Source: an uncultured Chloroflexia bacterium (GTDB taxonomy: Bacteria; Chloroflexota; Limnocylindria; Limnocylindrales; CSP1-4). From it: 64,000 bases of DNA. The translations under genes and the position numbers were made by a program. Below the pieces are notes generated by a model, which ran no database searches, was not told the DNA's origin, and saw only the letters and a list, made by a program, of their open reading frames with translations. The DNA lies in the NCBI GenBank assembly GCA_963791725.1, contig CAWBTQ010000003.1, positions 10,516 to 74,515 on the forward strand, written 5' to 3'. This document shows positions 3,478-19,464 of this stretch, piece after piece; positions within the stretch are counted from its first letter, which is position 1; every line of letters starts with the position of its first letter.

Positions 3478-4028
3478 TCAGGTCACCGTTGCGCTTGTCC
3501 GCGCTGGTTGCCGCGGTCTCCCTGCTGTTCGTGTCCGCGCCGGTCGCGATGGCCAAGCAGAGCGGCGAGACCGTCTGGGCGAACGGGCAGGAGTGGACGA
3601 TGATCGCGCCCCACGCGATCACGGATCCCAACCCGAACATTCTCGCGAAAGCCCCGCCCCTATACGTCCTGGCCTTCCCCTCGAACGGCCATGGAGGCTG
3701 GATCCTGCCCACCAATTACAGCCCGCAGTGCGACCCGTGCCTGGGCGTTCCTGTGCCCCCGTATCACGATCACCTGCTGACCGGCGCCCCGGGCTTCGGC
3801 ACCAACGGCACGGCCGGCGATTATGAGAGCCCGTGGCGAGTGGTGCTCATGATGTACAACCCCGCCTACGTTCTCGGCGGCGACTTCGTCCCGGTGACGC
3901 GTGACGAAGACCTGGCAGGGGCGATCGCCCATGGCGAGTTCCTCCCCTTCGGGCCGAACGGCGCCTACGAAGTGCCTCTCCCGGTGGTCCTCATCTGTCC
4001 TCTCGTATCACTGAACGCGGCCGGCTAG
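3474..4028 (+). CDS. secreted hypothetical protein
   Basis: ATG at 3474 follows AAGGAGG at 3462-3468. Signal peptide MIRSPLRLSALVAAVSLLFVSAPVAMA. The ORF-track entry 3297..4028 is a 5' over-extension. Confidence 0.6.
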   Translation: MIRSPLRLSALVAAVSLLFVSAPVAMAKQSGETVWANGQEWTMIAPHAITDPNPNILAKAPPLYVLAFPSNGHGGWILPTNYSPQCDPCLGVPVPPYHDHLLTGAPGFGTNGTAGDYESPWRVVLMMYNPAYVLGGDFVPVTRDEDLAGAIAHGEFLPFGPNGAYEVPLPVVLICPLVSLNAAG

Positions 4029-13886: not shown

Positions 13887-14287
13887 CGCCGTTCCTCACT
13901 GACCACCGGCACGCTGACTACCTCCGAATCGGTGGTGGGCCCAGAGGCGGCGGAGTGCCTCGAGTACCCGCGGCCAGGGGATCGGATCGAGGCCATGCAG
14001 ATGGGGAGCGCTTCTGGTCCACGATGGTGCTCCTTCGCACGGACCGTATCCGTCTTGACGCGTCGTGGCTGTCTACGGCTCGCCCCGTCCCACGCTTTGC
14101 GGGGCGCACGTGCCGGGCCAGAGATGGGGCGCTGTGAGATTCGCGACTTCGGGACGACGCGGCGGGGTTTCAGGGTCCGTCGTCCGCTCCGCCCTCGCCG
14201 CAGATGAGAGATCGCGGTGCCGCGGGACCGCGGCGGCTGTAACCTCTGCGTTGCAGGATGGCGCGACCGACGGAGGAGCATTCGAGA

Positions 14288-15568
14288 ATGGGCGACTCGC
14301 TCAAGATCGGCAAGTCGGCGGGGCCGGCAGGCAAAGCCACTGGAATCGCGGCGCCAGCTCAGGACGCTCCGGCAGCACAAACCGCGTCTCTCGTCCTGGT
14401 CCCACCCGCGGCCGTCGCGGTAGTCGAAGAGCGCGAGGCCGCCGGCTCGATCAAGCTCGACGCCGCCACCCTGGCCAAGCTCGACGGCATGGTCGCCGAC
14501 TACGTCGCAGCCATCTCTCAGCTCGACGTAAGTGATCCGAAGTTCGAGTCGCGGATCGCCGACATCCGAACGCTGGGCAACGAAGACGTCAAGGCCGCCT
14601 CGCAGGTCTCCTCGCGCCTCCTCGATCGACCGGTCGGATCGATGCAGAAGGGCGGGCTCGCCACCTCCGCCACCGTGTCCACGAGCCTGCTGCAACTGCG
14701 CCGCCAGATAGACGCCCTCGATCCGAGCCACCAGGGCGATCTGTTCAGCCCGCGCAAGCTCCTCGGCGTCATCCCATTCGGCGACCGGCTGCGCAGCTAC
14801 TTCGCCCGCTACCAGTCGAGCCAGGGCCACATCAACGCCATCGTCGGCGGCCTCGAACGAGGCCAGGCGGAACTGGCCAAGGACAACGCCGACCTCGAGC
14901 GCGAGAAGGAAAACCTGTGGCAGACGATGGAACGTCTGCGCCAGTACATCTATCTCGCCCAGAAGCTCGACGCGAGCCTGACTGAGCGCATCGCCAGGGT
15001 CGAGGCGACGGATCCGGAGCGGGCCCGAGTCCTCAAGGAGGACATGCTCTTCTACGTGCGCCAGAAGGTGCAGGACCTGACCGCACAGCTGGCCGTGAGC
15101 GTCCAGGGCTACCTCTCGATCGACGTGATCCGGCGCAACAACCTCGAGCTGATGCGGGGCGTGGACCGGGCCACGACGACAACGGTCTCGGCACTGCGGA
15201 CGGCCGTGATAGTCGCCCAGGCGCTCGGCGACCAGAAGCTCGTCCTCGACCAGATCACCGCCCTCAACACGACCACTTCCAACCTGATCGAAAGCACCTC
15301 GGCGATGCTTCGCCAGCAGTCGGCGACGATCAACGAACAGGCGTCGTCGTCAACGATCGAGCTGGAGAAGCTGCAGGCGGCATTCGACAACATCTACGCG
15401 ACGATGGACGAGATCGACGCTTTCAAGCTCAAGGCGCTCGACTCGATGACCAAGACGGTCGACGCGCTCACGACCCAGATCAACAAGGCGCAGTCGTACC
15501 TGGATCGCGCCAAGACTGGCGAACCGGCGGCGACCCGGATCGAGGGCGGGACGGCCAAGCCGCACTGA
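14288..15568 (+). CDS. telA: toxic anion resistance protein, TelA/KlaB family
   Basis: Long coiled-coil protein with TelA-like middle and C-terminal regions. I prefer the ATG at 14288 (GGAGG 11 nt upstream) over the ATG at 14258. Confidence 0.8.
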   Translation: MGDSLKIGKSAGPAGKATGIAAPAQDAPAAQTASLVLVPPAAVAVVEEREAAGSIKLDAATLAKLDGMVADYVAAISQLDVSDPKFESRIADIRTLGNEDVKAASQVSSRLLDRPVGSMQKGGLATSATVSTSLLQLRRQIDALDPSHQGDLFSPRKLLGVIPFGDRLRSYFARYQSSQGHINAIVGGLERGQAELAKDNADLEREKENLWQTMERLRQYIYLAQKLDASLTERIARVEATDPERARVLKEDMLFYVRQKVQDLTAQLAVSVQGYLSIDVIRRNNLELMRGVDRATTTTVSALRTAVIVAQALGDQKLVLDQITALNTTTSNLIESTSAMLRQQSATINEQASSSTIELEKLQAAFDNIYATMDEIDAFKLKALDSMTKTVDALTTQINKAQSYLDRAKTGEPAATRIEGGTAKPH

Positions 15569-15790
15569 TCGTCGGCATCGGCGCCGGTCGGCGCCGCCGG
15601 AGCAAGGCGACTCTGACGCGAAGCTAAGCGTCGCCGAGCGCAGGCCGCGGCGAGCGGCAACCGGATCGTCAGGCGCCCGATCGTCGAGCATCGGCGCCGG
15701 TCGGCGCCGCCGGGGCAAGGCGACTCTGACGCGAAGCTAAGCGTCGCCGAGCGCAGGCCGCCGCGAGCGGCAACCGATCGTCAGGCGGGC
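15568..15790. repeat. 112-bp intergenic tandem duplication (2 copies) between convergent telA and merR-arsC; each copy carries GC-rich stem-loops
   Basis: Copy 1 is 15568-15679 and copy 2 is 15680-15790. They differ by 3 substitutions and 2 single-base indels. Each contains GGCGACtctgACGCgaagctaaGCGTCGCC and GGCGCCggtcGGCGCC. The unit is bounded by ATCGTC direct repeats. Confidence 0.8.
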
Positions 15791-16611
15791 GCGCCCTCCG
15801 GCGCTCGGCGGGCGCGTCGGGCCAACTCGACGAACGGACGAAGCCGCGTCGCCACCTCGGTCCGCGTCCGTCGGAAGGCTTCGAGCTTCTGCTCGTCCGT
15901 GCCCTCGACCTCGGCCGGGTCGTCGAGGCCCCAGTGGAGTGAGTTGTGTTCGCCCGGGAAGACCGGACACGTCTGGCGGGCTCGATCGCAGACCGTGATG
16001 ACATAGTCGAACCGCTGGCCGAGGAACTCGGTCACCGACTTGCTCTTCGCGCCGGACCAGTCGATGCCGATCTCGCCGAGGGCCCGAACCGTGTAGGGGT
16101 TGACGCCCTTTGGCTCGGTTCCCGCGGACAGTGCCTCGAACTCGGCGCCGCCGAAGTCGCGCAGCAACGCCTCCGCGATCTGGCTGCGCGCGGAGTTGCC
16201 GGTGCAGACGAAGAGAACTCGGATCGGTGCGGCCATGGTTTCCTCCCGGGTGCGCCGGGCTCGGCCGGCGGCGGCGATTGTCAACTCCAGATCGATCAAC
16301 TCCGCGTCAAGGCGGTCGAGGTCGGAACGCTGGTGAGAAATGGCGGCGCGCTGGCGGGCGATCAGCGGCTCGAGATCGATATCGATTTCGCCGCGGTCGA
16401 CGCACAGCGATGCGAGCCGGCCGGCTTCGACGGGTGGGAGTCCCAGGCGGCGCAGCGCCACGACCAGGCTCAGGCGGCTCAGCGCATCATCGCCGTAGTC
16501 CCGGTAGCCATTCTCGCCACGAGCCGCCGGCGGGAGAACTCCGGTCTCCTCGTAGAAGCGTATGGCAGAGGGGGCGACGCCGGCGCGTCGGGCGAGCTCG
16601 GAGACCTTCAT
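15781..16611 (-). CDS. arsC: MerR-family HTH regulator fused to low-molecular-weight-phosphatase-type arsenate reductase (ArsC)
   Basis: N-terminus: MerR HTH MKVSELARRAGVAPSAIRFYEETGVL plus a coiled-coil dimerisation helix. C-terminus: LMW-PTP fold with CTGNSARS (CX5R P-loop) and downstream Cys/Asp typical of thioredoxin-coupled ArsC. Confidence 0.85.
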   Translation of the reverse strand: MKVSELARRAGVAPSAIRFYEETGVLPPAARGENGYRDYGDDALSRLSLVVALRRLGLPPVEAGRLASLCVDRGEIDIDLEPLIARQRAAISHQRSDLDRLDAELIDLELTIAAAGRARRTREETMAAPIRVLFVCTGNSARSQIAEALLRDFGGAEFEALSAGTEPKGVNPYTVRALGEIGIDWSGAKSKSVTEFLGQRFDYVITVCDRARQTCPVFPGEHNSLHWGLDDPAEVEGTDEQKLEAFRRTRTEVATRLRPFVELARRARRAPEGAPA

Positions 16612-16660
16612 GACGCAACCCTACACCTTCAAGCCACTTGAAGGTCAAGGGGCGCGCCGG
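16612..16660 (-). promoter_or_regulatory. MerR-type promoter: -35 TTGACC, 19-bp spacer containing the dyad CCTTCAAGccaCTTGAAGG, -10 TAGGGT 6 nt before the ATG (leaderless)
   Basis: On the minus strand: cccTTGACCttcaagtggcttgaaggtgTAGGGTtgcgtcATG. The 19-bp spacer plus internal palindrome is the hallmark of MerR-regulated promoters. Confidence 0.55.
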
Positions 16661-16713: not shown

Positions 16714-17058
16714 CTATGTCGGCCGCGTCAGCGCCAGGACCGTCGGCTTTCCGGAAAGCGCGGCGGCCGTGCGCGGGAGCCCCGGCACCAACTCCCCTGC
16801 CAGCTCGCGGAAGCGGGCTACGGCCTCAGGCCGGAGCGAGTAGTAGATCCACGTCCCCTTGCGCTCGGTCGTGACCCAGCCGGCGGTCCTCAGAACGCGC
16901 AGGTGGTGCGACACGGTGGGCTGGCCAACCGTGCAGCAGTCGGCAAAGTCGCAGGCGCAGACGGCGCCGTCGGCGCTCAGCTCGCGGAGTATCGAGAGTC
17001 TTGCGGGGTCGGCGGCCGCCCGAAGGAGCAGGACGTCCGGATCGGTCGAGCGTTTCAT
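16714..17058 (-). CDS. arsR: ArsR/SmtB-family metalloregulator
   Basis: Start MKRSTDPD at 17058. wHTH with metal-site CACDF (CVC-type As(III) site). A 5' ORF extension to 17283 would overlap the arsM promoter and is unlikely. Confidence 0.85.
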   Translation of the reverse strand: MKRSTDPDVLLLRAAADPARLSILRELSADGAVCACDFADCCTVGQPTVSHHLRVLRTAGWVTTERKGTWIYYSLRPEAVARFRELAGELVPGLPRTAAALSGKPTVLALTRPT

Positions 17059-17139: not shown

Positions 17140-17307
17140 ATGTCGATCCATTACAGCCCCGAGCTCGTCAAGACGCTCATGAACGAGAACCTGCGCGAGG
17201 CGCGCCGAGCCATGGAGGTCCACTGCTGCGAGGAGCCGCGGGTCGAGCCCAGGCGCTCCTTCCGCAGCCTCTTCCGGCGCCAATCCTCCGCCGCGTGCGG
17301 ATGCTAG
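17140..17307 (+). CDS. small Cys-rich ORF (55 aa) between arsR and arsM, not in the ORF track (<60 aa)
   Basis: MSIHYSPELVKTLMNENLREARRAMEVHCCEEPRVEPRRSFRSLFRRQSSAACGC*. SD AAAGGAG 8 nt upstream. Strongly G/C-biased third positions. Vicinal CC and C-terminal CGC resemble the Cys-rich tail of the adjacent ArsM (…SCGCGSCCG*). Confidence 0.4.
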   Translation: MSIHYSPELVKTLMNENLREARRAMEVHCCEEPRVEPRRSFRSLFRRQSSAACGC

Positions 17308-17317
17308 GGAGCCCCTA

Positions 17318-18142
17318 ATGACCGCCGAGATCCACGAAGAGGTCCGCCTCCACTACGCGGAAGCCGCCCGGGGCGTCGCCTCCGGCGAGTCGTGCTGCAG
17401 CGACAGCGGCAACTACGGCAGCGAGCTCTACTCCGCTCTCGAGCGCAACGAGCTTCCCGACGCGGCCGTGATGGCATCGCTCGGCTGCGGCAACCCCATC
17501 GCCGTCGCCGATCTGCGCGAAGGAGAGCGGGTTCTGGACCTGGGTTCCGGGGGCGGCATCGACGTGCTGCTGTCGGCCAAGCGGGTCGGGCCGAGCGGCC
17601 GGGCCTTCGGTCTCGACATGACCGATGAGATGCTGGCTCTCGCTCAGAGCAACGCCGCCGCTGCCGGCGCCACGAACGTCGAATGGCTCAGGGGCCAGAT
17701 CGAATCGATCCCGCTGCCCGCAGCCTCGATCGACGTCGTCATAAGCAACTGCGTCGTGAACCTGGCCGCCGACAAGCCGTCCGTCTTCCGAGAGATCGCG
17801 CGTGTCCTGCGGCCGGGCGGACGAATCGGCATCACCGATATCGTCGCCGACGACTCGCTCACGCTCGAAGATCGGCGCGAGCGCGGATCGTACGCCGGCT
17901 GCATCGCCGGCGCCCTGTCGTTCTCTGAGTTCCGCTCAGGGCTGGAGGAAGTCGGACTCGAGGACGTGTCCCTGACCGTCACCCACGAGGTCGCCGATCG
18001 GCTGTTCAGCGTCATAGTCAAGGCCCGCAAGGGGCCTGGTTCGGGCGATGAGAAGGCGGCGTACCCCGCCCACGCAGAAAGCGCGAAAACCGAGGCCGCT
18101 GCCGTCGCCCAGTCGTGCGGCTGCGGGAGTTGCTGCGGATGA
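17318..18142 (+). CDS. arsM: arsenite S-adenosylmethionine methyltransferase ArsM
   Basis: SAM-MTase motif I VLDLGSGGGID. Conserved As(III)-binding cysteines (ESCCSD, LGCGNP, AGCIAG). Cys-rich C-terminal tail. Confidence 0.9.
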   Translation: MTAEIHEEVRLHYAEAARGVASGESCCSDSGNYGSELYSALERNELPDAAVMASLGCGNPIAVADLREGERVLDLGSGGGIDVLLSAKRVGPSGRAFGLDMTDEMLALAQSNAAAAGATNVEWLRGQIESIPLPAASIDVVISNCVVNLAADKPSVFREIARVLRPGGRIGITDIVADDSLTLEDRRERGSYAGCIAGALSFSEFRSGLEEVGLEDVSLTVTHEVADRLFSVIVKARKGPGSGDEKAAYPAHAESAKTEAAAVAQSCGCGSCCG

Positions 18143-19464
18143 TGGCGGTCGAACGCGCGCTCGACTCGGATCGACCTGCGATCGAGGGCTTGCTGAACGC
18201 AAACGAACTGCCGCTGGACGGGCTCGAGACCGCACTGCAGACAGCTGTCGTCGCCCGCGCCGCCGGGGGCGTCGTTGGTTGCGCGGCCATCGAGCCGTAC
18301 GGTCCGGTCGGGCTCCTACGGTCCGTCTGCGTCGCGGCCGAATTGCGCGGTTCGGGCGTAGGCAGCCGGCTTGTTGCCGCCGCCGAGGCCCTGGCGGCCG
18401 AGCGCGGCATCAAGGATCTCTACCTGCTGACCGAAACGGCCGAGTCGTGGTTTCCGCGCCTCGGCTATGTGGCGGCGGCGCGAAGCGCGGTCCCGGCGGA
18501 GCTGACGGCGTCACCGGAATTTGCAGGCGCATGCCCGGACAGCGCAGCGGTCCTGCACAAGCGCCTGCAGTCGTCTGCGGCGAGACTCGAGGAGCCGAAG
18601 CCGGGTGCCCGAACGAGCCAGGCAGCCACGACAGCCTCGGTGGCACCGGCGGCGACGTCCGGGCCTCAGCCCGCCGCCCTCGAGCCAGCCCCGGACCGGC
18701 TCCCGGCCGTCTACCTCGGCCACGGCGCGCCGAACCTGATCGACGACCAGCTCTGGCCGGTCGAGCTGGCCGCATGGGCAAAGGAGATGCCGCGCCCCAG
18801 GTCGATCCTGGTAGTGAGCGCACACTGGCAATCCGCGCCGCTCACCGTCGGGGCGGTCAACCGTGCGCCGCTCGTGTACGACTTCTACGGCTTCCCCGAG
18901 CGTTACTACCAGATCCGCTACGACTCCCCCGCCGCCCCGGATCTCGCGGCACGAATCAAGGCACTGATGCCGCCGAGCGAACCGGTGGCGCAACGCGAGC
19001 GCGGCCTGGACCACGGCGCATACGTGCCGCTGCTGGTCATGTATCCGGAGGCCGACATCCCTGTCTTGCAGATGTCGATGCCGGACCTGGCGCCACAGCG
19101 CCTCTTCGAAATCGGCCGGCGGCTGGCGCCCCTGCGCGACGAGGGCGTCCTGATCATGGGCAGCGGCTTCATGACCCACGGGCTGCCGTTCGTTCACGAC
19201 TACTGGGACGGCCGGCCGGGCGCGCCCGAATGGTCGGCCGAGTTCGACCTCTGGGCAGCCGAGATGCTCGAGAAGGGCGACGTCGACTCGCTGTTCGACT
19301 TCCGCAACAAGGCCCCCGGCATGCCTTTCGCCCATCCAACGGTCGAGCACTTCGCGCCGCTGTTTGTCGCGCTGGGCGCCGCGACCGACCCGACGGCGGC
19401 TCCGAAATTCACGATCGAGGGCTACTGGCTGGGCCTGGCCAAACGTTCGTTCGAGGTCCGCTGA
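18139..19464 (+). CDS. fusion protein: ArsN-like GNAT N-acetyltransferase (N-term, ~150 aa) + class III (LigB/DODA-type) extradiol ring-cleavage dioxygenase (C-term, ~270 aa)
   Basis: The start ATG at 18139 overlaps the arsM TGA (ATGA). GNAT core AIEPYGPVGLLRSVCVAAELRGSGVGSRLV. A Pro/Ala/Thr linker follows. The dioxygenase module matches the YgiD/DODA fold (LGHGAPN, SAHWQSAPL, MGSGFMTHGL, PTVEHFAPLFVALGA). One continuous frame. Confidence 0.8.
   Translation: MMAVERALDSDRPAIEGLLNANELPLDGLETALQTAVVARAAGGVVGCAAIEPYGPVGLLRSVCVAAELRGSGVGSRLVAAAEALAAERGIKDLYLLTETAESWFPRLGYVAAARSAVPAELTASPEFAGACPDSAAVLHKRLQSSAARLEEPKPGARTSQAATTASVAPAATSGPQPAALEPAPDRLPAVYLGHGAPNLIDDQLWPVELAAWAKEMPRPRSILVVSAHWQSAPLTVGAVNRAPLVYDFYGFPERYYQIRYDSPAAPDLAARIKALMPPSEPVAQRERGLDHGAYVPLLVMYPEADIPVLQMSMPDLAPQRLFEIGRRLAPLRDEGVLIMGSGFMTHGLPFVHDYWDGRPGAPEWSAEFDLWAAEMLEKGDVDSLFDFRNKAPGMPFAHPTVEHFAPLFVALGAATDPTAAPKFTIEGYWLGLAKRSFEVR

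Follow-up and report, generated by a model that had tools for sequence, protein, structure and literature searches.

Regulators of the heavy-metal MerR subfamily (CueR, ZntR, CadR/PbrR, MerR) have an N-terminal winged helix-turn-helix (HTH) domain and a long coiled coil; in other MerR proteins, the HTH and coiled coil precede a C-terminal sensory module, either a large non-metal sensor domain (BmrR, TipAL, CarH, BrlR) or one based on cysteine or redox chemistry (SoxR, NmlR/AdhR), and we know of none among these in which the module is a complete detoxification enzyme whose substrate is likely the signal. Regarding arsenic, most of the characterised regulators of ars operons known to us are repressors of the ArsR/SmtB type, for which the signal is As(III) and not arsenate. 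In the ArsR-ArsC (ArsRC) fusions, of which Leptospirillum ferriphilum and Microbacterium sp. A33 provide examples, a transcription factor is covalently joined to an arsenate reductase of the low-molecular-weight protein tyrosine phosphatase (LMW-PTP) type, again in ars loci. The ArsRC fusion of Paracoccus sp. was reported to improve As(V) detection by linking the reduction to an ArsR domain that senses As(III) (Chem Rev 2024, PMC11672702). The present analysis concerns a gene for a MerR-ArsC fusion, preceded by a MerR-type promoter, on a stretch of 64,000 nucleotides from an uncultured Chloroflexia bacterium of soil (contig CAWBTQ010000003.1, positions 10,516 to 74,515; this whole stretch is called the window, and positions are numbered from its first letter).

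The fusion gene lies on the minus strand, and its parts are the following:

15781 to 16611, minus strand: MerR-ArsC fusion gene, 276 aa, stop codon inside the coordinates (list of open reading frames (ORFs); Pfam MerR_1 and LMWPc)
16420 to 16611, minus strand: MerR winged-HTH DNA-binding domain, CueR-like, aa 1-64 (PF13411, CueR structures)
16402 to 16404, minus strand: codon of Cys70, a near-invariant cysteine specific to this family, located where helix alpha4 of the MerR domain ends
16249 to 16374, minus strand: long helix alpha5, the presumed antiparallel coiled-coil dimerisation helix, aa 80-121 (AlphaFold2 (AF2) model)
15805 to 16224, minus strand: arsenate reductase domain with the LMW-PTP fold, aa 130-269 (P-loop C136-X5-R142, C208, C215, D231)

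As for the N-terminal half, Pfam MerR_1 matched aa 1-64 (E 1.3e-15), and the two MerR family models scored above their cutoffs over the same residues (PF13411, 57.7 bits with a cutoff of 21.6; PF00376, 53.5 bits with a cutoff of 28.2); the match to MerR-DNA-bind at aa 44-108 was weak (20.1 bits, under the 25.4 cutoff), and the winged helix of ArsR/SmtB proteins (HTH_5) was not found in this half, where MerR models alone match. The best solved match for aa 1-106 was CueR (1q05/4wls, E ~4e-12), with the structures of TipA and BrlR among the weak ones; CueR was also the top-ranking regulator family in NCBIfam, with a score for the CueR equivalog TIGR02044 (57.6 bits) below its cutoff of 147.4. 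After alpha5, the sequence runs into a linker and the ArsC domain: it has no CX7C loop and no equivalents of Cys112 and Cys120, so that the metal loop of CueR is absent. The overall layout is a CueR-like MerR HTH and presumed coiled coil (aa 1-121), a linker of ~10 aa, and a complete thioredoxin (Trx)-type LMW-PTP arsenate reductase; judged from the sequence, the protein is a CueR-like DNA-binding and presumed dimerisation module in which 140 aa of arsenate reductase replace the usual C-terminal metal-binding loop.

The C-terminal half matched LMWPc (aa 132-260, E 9e-20) and aligned end to end with Trx-coupled arsenate reductases (8p5n, E 1.5e-37; Bacillus subtilis ArsC 1jl3, E 8e-31). With these enzymes and with Staphylococcus aureus pI258 ArsC (1LJL), it shares the fold, the CX5R P-loop, the cascade residues Cys10, Cys82 and Cys89, and Asp105, but they are stand-alone proteins of 131-144 aa that have no DNA-binding domain. 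The P-loop is CTGNSARS, and C136, R142, C208, C215 and D231 align with C10, R16, C82, C89 and D105 of 1jl3, so that the full residue set of a Trx-type arsenate reductase is present (P-loop Cys-X5-Arg, equivalents of Cys82 and Cys89, and the Asp general acid). The domain matched TIGR02691 with an E-value of 1.2e-37 and 129.1 bits, without reaching the equivalog cutoff of 174.3, as a divergent member would; because of this score, the assignment rests on the catalytic residues and on the genomic context. The reductase half is probably active. The domain databases suffice to predict the architecture of the fusion, and the initial annotation, made from the letters alone, had already placed a MerR-ArsC fusion with the P-loop CTGNSARS within 15781-16660, in agreement with the Pfam matches.

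A survey of databases showed how widespread this architecture is. A first homologue search returned more than 120 clusters at the 90% identity level, 77-97% identical to the query and all with MerR and LMWPc domains, which the database names either "arsenate reductase" or [quoted passage not shown]; a search from the most distant member (P0147) added ~90 further fusion clusters, one of them from a metagenome-assembled genome (MAG) of Candidatus Dormibacteraeota, giving more than 200 full-length homologues with a common architecture. In the species-representative genome collection there were 22 full-length copies, all in Chloroflexota MAGs. The fusion is therefore common in metagenomes of Limnocylindria and Dormibacteria, where it carries automatic annotation only. 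When clustering was set at 50% identity, a handful of full-length fusion clusters remained, the other long matches in this representative library being mostly ArsC-ArsC or ArsR-ArsC proteins, which indicates that the MerR-ArsC family is narrow in sequence space, though it has many members. In literature searches, which included arsenic in Limnocylindria and ArsR-ArsC fusions, neither a MerR-ArsC fusion nor an arsenic regulator of the MerR type was found described. ArsRC and MerR-ArsC are regarded here as independent fusion events.

This distribution also bears on the trivial explanation that separate merR and arsC genes were joined by a frameshift or by a chimeric assembly. Such an artefact is a general possibility in MAG-derived sequences, and nothing more speaks for it; it is excluded by the more than 200 distinct clusters at 90% identity, which come from many samples and assemblers and keep the same architecture of 270-290 aa with a conserved linker length, and by the record of the exact protein on a 366-kb contig.

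Residue conservation was examined in an alignment of 212 full-length fusions with 43-97% identity. C136, R142 and C208 occurred in 212/212 sequences, C215 in 211/212, and D231 and Cys70 of the MerR domain in 210/212 each; the near-invariant cysteines are therefore four, namely the catalytic triad and Cys70. This pattern indicates that both halves are under purifying selection and that the enzyme half is not a decayed sensor; the fusion is real. Cys70 has no counterpart in CueR, where the corresponding residue is presumably Phe (from a hand alignment with the CueR sequence), and in the stand-alone MerR proteins that have the same operator the position is taken by His or another residue. In the AF2 monomer model (mean pLDDT, predicted local distance difference test, of 82.7), the four MerR helices and the wing are followed by a single long helix (aa 80-121) and by a flexible linker of low confidence (aa 119-129). 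The ArsC fold spans aa 130-269, and its loop 211-214, between C208 and C215, is again of low confidence. The C208-C215 segment is known to rearrange in the disulfide cascade of ArsC.

The conserved cysteines could in principle respond to any oxidant, and the LMW-PTP fold is common to protein tyrosine phosphatases; together with the presence of NmlR among the weak NCBIfam matches, this might suggest a general switch for thiol or disulfide stress, in which the LMW-PTP-like domain is a redox-sensitive cysteine module (cf. NmlR, AdhR) or a phosphotyrosine phosphatase. This reading is very unlikely, since the full triad of Trx-type ArsC (the equivalents of C10, C82 and C89) and the equivalent of Asp105 are invariant, the best matches are arsenate reductases and not tyrosine phosphatases, and most of the loci have ars neighbours (ArsR, ArsM, ArsN2, ACR3, MIP).

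The second line of evidence is the promoter of the fusion gene, whose elements in the window are listed below:

16643 to 16648, minus strand: -35 hexamer TTGACC, read from the sequence (TTGAC[CA] in 22/23 sequences, i.e. the window and 22 genome loci)
16642 to 16624, minus strand: spacer ttcaagtggcttgaaggtg, 19 nt, read from the sequence
16625 to 16645, both strands: operator, the perfect dyad ACCTTCAAG-N3-CTTGAAGGT, lying in the 19-bp spacer and reaching into the -35
16618 to 16623, minus strand: -10 hexamer TAGGGT, of the TANNNT type; its distance from the -35 is exactly 19 nt
16609 to 16611, minus strand: ATG start codon, 6 nt past the -10; predicted transcription start site (TSS) at ~16611

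On the minus strand the order is cc, TTGACC, ttcaagtggcttgaaggtg, TAGGGT, tgcgtc and ATG, and the elements are those that the initial annotation had named, i.e. the two hexamers, the 19-bp spacer and the 6 nt to the start codon. The dyad had been written there as CCTTCAAG-cca-CTTGAAGG (8-3-8), which is accurate as a reading of the plus strand; the true palindrome is one base longer on each side, a perfect 9-3-9 that includes the last three bases of the -35, with an imperfect extension up to 20-3-20 at 80% complementarity. The dyad is unique in the window even when three mismatches are tolerated, with a chance expectation of 0.02 from shuffled sequences. Operators of the MerR family are palindromes inside sigma-70 promoters whose spacers are over-long (19-20 bp), as is the case here; a generic sigma-70 scan did not report this promoter, because it was limited to spacers of 16-18 nt. 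The MerR-type architecture that had been proposed is also borne out by the comparison with E. coli PcopA, the target of CueR, which reads TTGACC TTCCCCTTGCTGGAAGGTT TAACCT (verified 30 nt upstream of copA in 5423/5426 complete E. coli genomes) and has the same register, TTGACCTTC-N9-GAAGGT-N-TANNNT with a 19-bp spacer. The fusion differs from the CueR system in its extended half-site (ACCTTCAAG instead of ACCTTCC) and in the predicted leaderless mRNA, in addition to the invariant Cys70.

The upstream regions of the 22 genome copies and of the window (n=23) were aligned, and the arrangement TTGAC[CA], exactly 19 nt, TANNNT, 6 or 7 nt, and ATG or GTG was found in 22/23 of them. The columns of the dyad arms were 78-100% identical across the genome loci; identity fell to 30-70% in the central N3 of the dyad, in the inner bases of the -10, in the 6-7 nt that precede the start codon, and in the 20 nt upstream of the -35. 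Metagenomes were scanned with the -35 and dyad alone (TTGACMTTCAAGNNNCTTGAAGGT), leaving the -10 and the start spacing outside the query, and at least 120 matches were obtained; among the matches listed there were 23 fusion loci, and the -10 and the 6-7-nt start spacing were present in 22 of these 23. The same geometry recurred in three distant members located by exact protein look-up (L201, from Dormibacteraeota, L202 and L203; related loci are given L numbers). Overall, the full geometry of -35, dyad, -10 and start occurred in about 47/49 sequences (the window and 48 loci) with 43-97% protein identity, a count that takes in three loci where the start codon 6-7 nt after the -10 is that of a mini-ORF. 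In these three (L101, L107 and L203), a putatively leaderless mini-ORF of 13-18 codons begins at this position and overlaps the start codon of the fusion as ATGA or GTGA, which shows that the predicted coincidence of +1 and start codon is kept although the main ORF has been displaced, and suggests, from the layout, translational coupling in a subclade.

These data strongly suggest that the fusion transcript is leaderless and starts at or next to the ATG, because the spacing between -10 and start is conserved while the intervening bases vary, and because the segment has no room for a Shine-Dalgarno sequence. A start codon further upstream is impossible, since the TAG of the -10 is an in-frame stop. 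The leaderless start had been anticipated in the initial annotation, and the conserved 6-7-nt spacing sustains it, the TSS at ~16611 being still a predicted one. Leaderless starts appear normal in this organism, to judge from the neighbouring arsR gene:

16714 to 17058, minus strand: arsR, canonical ArsR/SmtB with a CxC motif (Pfam HTH_5, NCBIfam NF033788)

This gene is leaderless in geometry (TTGTCA-17-TATCCT-7 nt-ATG), and the 17-bp spacer of its promoter points to a native optimum of 17 bp, from which the 19 bp of the fusion promoter departs. It is co-directional with the fusion and immediately upstream of it, with its stop at 16714, and the fusion promoter lies inside the 102-bp spacer between the two genes. 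Hence, the canonical ArsR that the initial annotation had noted is indeed at the locus, but the description of it as divergent was mistaken; being within the arsR-fusion spacer, the promoter cannot drive the "arsR side". The further suggestion that the fusion controls arsR-side transcription does not hold either: the dyad search and a scan with a position weight matrix gave no second operator in the window, and in the relatives that have a divergent operator, it drives a paralogous LMWPc gene and not arsR. The self-regulation proposed in the same place is supported by the comparative evidence, namely the promoter footprint before fusion genes, which makes it plausible.

The position of arsR raises the question of whether the MerR half merely binds DNA. 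In this alternative, the fusion would constitutively repress its own gene or limit its dosage, and no allosteric activation would take place; the gene would be induced when transcription of arsR, under the control of ArsR, reads through into it, and the joining to ArsC would mean nothing for signalling. In its favour, arsR is co-directional and 102 bp upstream with no terminator-like site detected, and some MerR relatives, e.g. MerD, act mainly as repressors or co-regulators. Against it, the strict 19-bp spacer between a good -35 and a good -10 is what characterises activation by distortion, whereas a pure repressor would have no use for it; conservation of the promoter is just as high at seven loci that have no upstream arsR (L006, L010, L011, L017, L019, L020 and L202); and the same promoter module drives other genes too. 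On balance, the alternative seems improbable.

Regarding these other genes, a second dyad in a divergent TTGACA-19-TAGCCT promoter was found in L008, L009, L012, L013 and L180 (in L008, this second MerR-type promoter is at 3919-3949). In L008, L009 and L012, a distance of 43-65 bp separates it from the operator of the fusion itself, upstream of which it lies, and in L013 it is the sole, shared dyad. The divergent promoter is followed by a leader of ~45 nt, an AAGGAG Shine-Dalgarno, and the gene of a 226-aa ArsC-like paralogue ("Phosphatase-like_N + LMWPc", with a three-helix-bundle N-domain), except for L012, where a Metallophos_2 gene takes its place. An operon with a leaderless Metallophos_2 phosphoesterase gene first and the MerR-ArsC gene second stands behind the same promoter in L111 and L150, and in L082 a Metallophos_2 gene is leaderless behind the same promoter and operator. 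This re-use of the module in both orientations before other genes argues for the operator of a trans-acting protein. L013 was also considered as a case of an 8-bp insertion in the operator; this was rejected, because on inspection the element is the -35 of the divergent promoter, the fusion's own promoter having apparently been lost.

The -35 and dyad pair is not confined to this family. Among the metagenome matches listed, the identical pair occurs across phyla and over 31-75% GC, including human-gut Firmicutes-like contigs, and stands before genes for MATE transporters (23 sites), DcuC-like carriers (14), ABC exporters (7), HMA P-type ATPases (4), CopZ-like proteins (2), and about 10 small stand-alone MerR regulators that carry typical Cys motifs. 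The module looks like a very widely shared type of MerR operator; a literature search with the operator sequence returned unrelated primer matches only. Its use across phyla indicates that the DNA-binding specificity of the fusion was inherited from a broad heavy-metal MerR clade, the C-terminal module being the new part. The fusion can be described as a MerR regulator with an enzyme as its putative sensor module, expected to act like CueR or MerR on DNA and like the ArsC of B. subtilis or pI258 as an enzyme; in concept it is close to the ArsRC fusions, but it is neither an ArsRC nor a CueR equivalog.

Combining the two lines of evidence, we consider it reasonably probable that one polypeptide is both regulator and enzyme, i.e. 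an arsenic-triggered reductase that activates its own synthesis from a leaderless mRNA, with a signal that we infer. By the MerR/CueR paradigm, the fusion dimer would bind the dyad ACCTTCAAG-N3-CTTGAAGGT and, in the resting state, would hold the promoter with its over-long 19-bp spacer weakly repressed; once the sensor half is triggered, the dimer would untwist the spacer into an active promoter, activation by DNA untwisting being presumed by analogy with CueR, and the transcript would begin at or beside the ATG, hence leaderless. The covalent coupling of As(V) reduction to regulation may be like that of ArsRC; in ArsRC, however, the DNA-binding part is a repressor of the ArsR/SmtB type, which acts by leaving the DNA, while the MerR module on a 19-bp-spacer promoter implies activation. 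The outcome would be a positive feedback loop in which the reductase is made when As(V) is present, and its As(III) product would in turn relieve the repression of the nearby genes under ArsR control (arsM and others), which by themselves are unresponsive to As(V).

As for the trigger, it would come from the cysteines of the reductase, and the term "sensor-enzyme" used in the initial annotation implies a ligand or redox switch that can at present only be deduced from sequence. The likeliest version would be arsenate turnover, which would set off the disulfide cascade from C136 to C208 to C215 and the rearrangement of the loop, possibly relayed to Cys70 of the partner subunit; this version is favoured by the four invariant cysteines, the intact enzyme, and a locus that already has an As(III)-sensing ArsR blind to As(V). 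In its complete form, MerR-ArsC would be a catalysis-coupled arsenate sensor, in which As(V) is detected by turnover and the disulfide cascade, relayed to Cys70 across the dimer, flips the MerR module to a DNA-untwisting activator; we propose this only tentatively, as a possible mechanism.

A close alternative is the capture of As(III) by the same thiols. In this case, the reductase half would only convert As(V) into As(III), the effector would be As(III) bound as a tri-thiolate by Cys70 of one subunit and two reductase cysteines of the other, and the disulfide state would carry no signal. The four near-invariant cysteines, including the family-specific Cys70, would fit such a site, and metal sites of the MerR family are commonly inter-subunit; in MerR itself, both subunits contribute to the Hg(II)-S3 site. 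Paracoccus ArsRC gives a precedent, since reduction is there reported to be coupled to an As(III)-sensing ArsR domain (PMC11672702). On the other side, the catalytic cysteines would have to double as enzyme residues and ligand site, and a second As(III) sensor is less obviously useful in a locus that already has an As(III)-sensing ArsR, which makes this alternative somewhat doubtful.

Several points weigh against a self-activating arsenic sensor as a whole. Many MerR regulators share the -35 and dyad, so that a different MerR paralogue elsewhere in the genome could be the binder. The scores of both the ArsC domain and the CueR-like domain are under the NCBIfam equivalog cutoffs. The AF2 model is of the monomer only, and the distance from Cys70 to the reductase cysteines across the dimer is beyond its reach. 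Read-through from ParsR could add expression, the fusion being 102 bp downstream of the co-directional arsR with no recognisable terminator. Finally, L013 seems to have lost the fusion's own promoter.

The rest of the ars locus lies upstream of the fusion and includes the following gene:

17318 to 18142, plus strand: arsM, arsenite methyltransferase, divergent from arsR (NCBIfam NF008823, 272.6 bits, above cutoff)

Between arsR and the plus-strand genes, the segment 17059-17116 has overlapping divergent sigma-70-like promoters, TTGACA-17-TATGGT (plus strand) and TTGTCA-17-TATCCT (minus strand), which in the window separate arsR from a small ORF and arsM; the short palindromes ATATCGA...TCGATAT in this segment probably form the ArsR operator. 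The small ORF (17140-17307, plus strand), located between the divergent promoters and arsM, has a good Shine-Dalgarno and encodes a Cys-rich protein of 55 aa (MSIHYSPELVKTLMNENLREA...HCC...AACGC); tblastn found it in 15 related loci with 36-57% identity, the N-terminus being conserved and the C-terminal CxC present in most matches, and its product may be a small As(III)-binding protein. The plus-strand gene at 18115-19464, which overlaps the 3' end of arsM by 28 nt, encodes a protein in which an ArsN2-type GNAT acetyltransferase (NF040501, above cutoff) is joined to a LigB/4,5-DOPA-dioxygenase-like domain; by tblastn, ArsN2-LigB recurs in related ars loci, some of which match one half only. 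The arrangement ArsN2(-LigB) <- ArsM <-|-> ArsR -> fusion is common to 9 related loci. No second ArsC, ACR3, MIP or other MerR of this type is encoded within the window; in other loci, the fusion is followed by ACR3, 37 bp on in L006 and 11 bp on in L201, or by a MIP channel with a 4-nt overlap in L203. In the latter, a complete-genome-scale contig, positions 1-2980 place the fusion-MIP operon back to back with a pst-like phosphate ABC cluster (PBP_like_2 and two BPD_transp_1), which hints at a link of arsenate and phosphate uptake with this regulator.

On the other side of the fusion, a TelA (toxic anion resistance) gene (14258-15568, plus strand) is convergent with it, and is the same neighbour in L001, L002, L005 and L024. 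Directly 3' of the fusion, positions 15575-15787 contain a tandem direct repeat of ~113 bp, 97-98% identical, through which the final codons of the gene, its stop codon and the GC-rich palindromes that follow are present twice; none of the related loci has this repeat. Rfam gave no match, and the RNA fold of the repeat region was not significant (z = -0.16), so that no RNA element plays a part; a generic promoter and terminator scan recognised no terminator after arsR or after the fusion gene.

In conclusion, the fusion is a well-posed experimental target, owing to its strong promoter footprint, to an additional cysteine that is invariant, and to the possibility of an activator that responds directly to As(V); precise, testable predictions on the operator, the TSS and the four cysteines follow from the comparison of loci. 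The fusion is a natural example of how MerR regulators gain specificity, with the C-terminal module swapped and the operator and promoter unchanged. If the proposal is true, a MerR-type activator with an arsenate reductase as its sensor would add a second logic to ars regulation, based on activation, positive feedback and an enzyme as sensor; it would also be a natural means of sensing As(V) directly, and a compact component for biosensors of As(V). If the sensor is coupled to catalysis, it would be, to our knowledge, the first MerR-type arsenic regulator, and it would explain how arsenate induces ars loci when ArsR is a sensor of As(III) only. Members of the family are abundant in Chloroflexota of peat and soil (Limnocylindria) and in Dormibacteria, and for this reason the family may shape arsenic cycling in these habitats.

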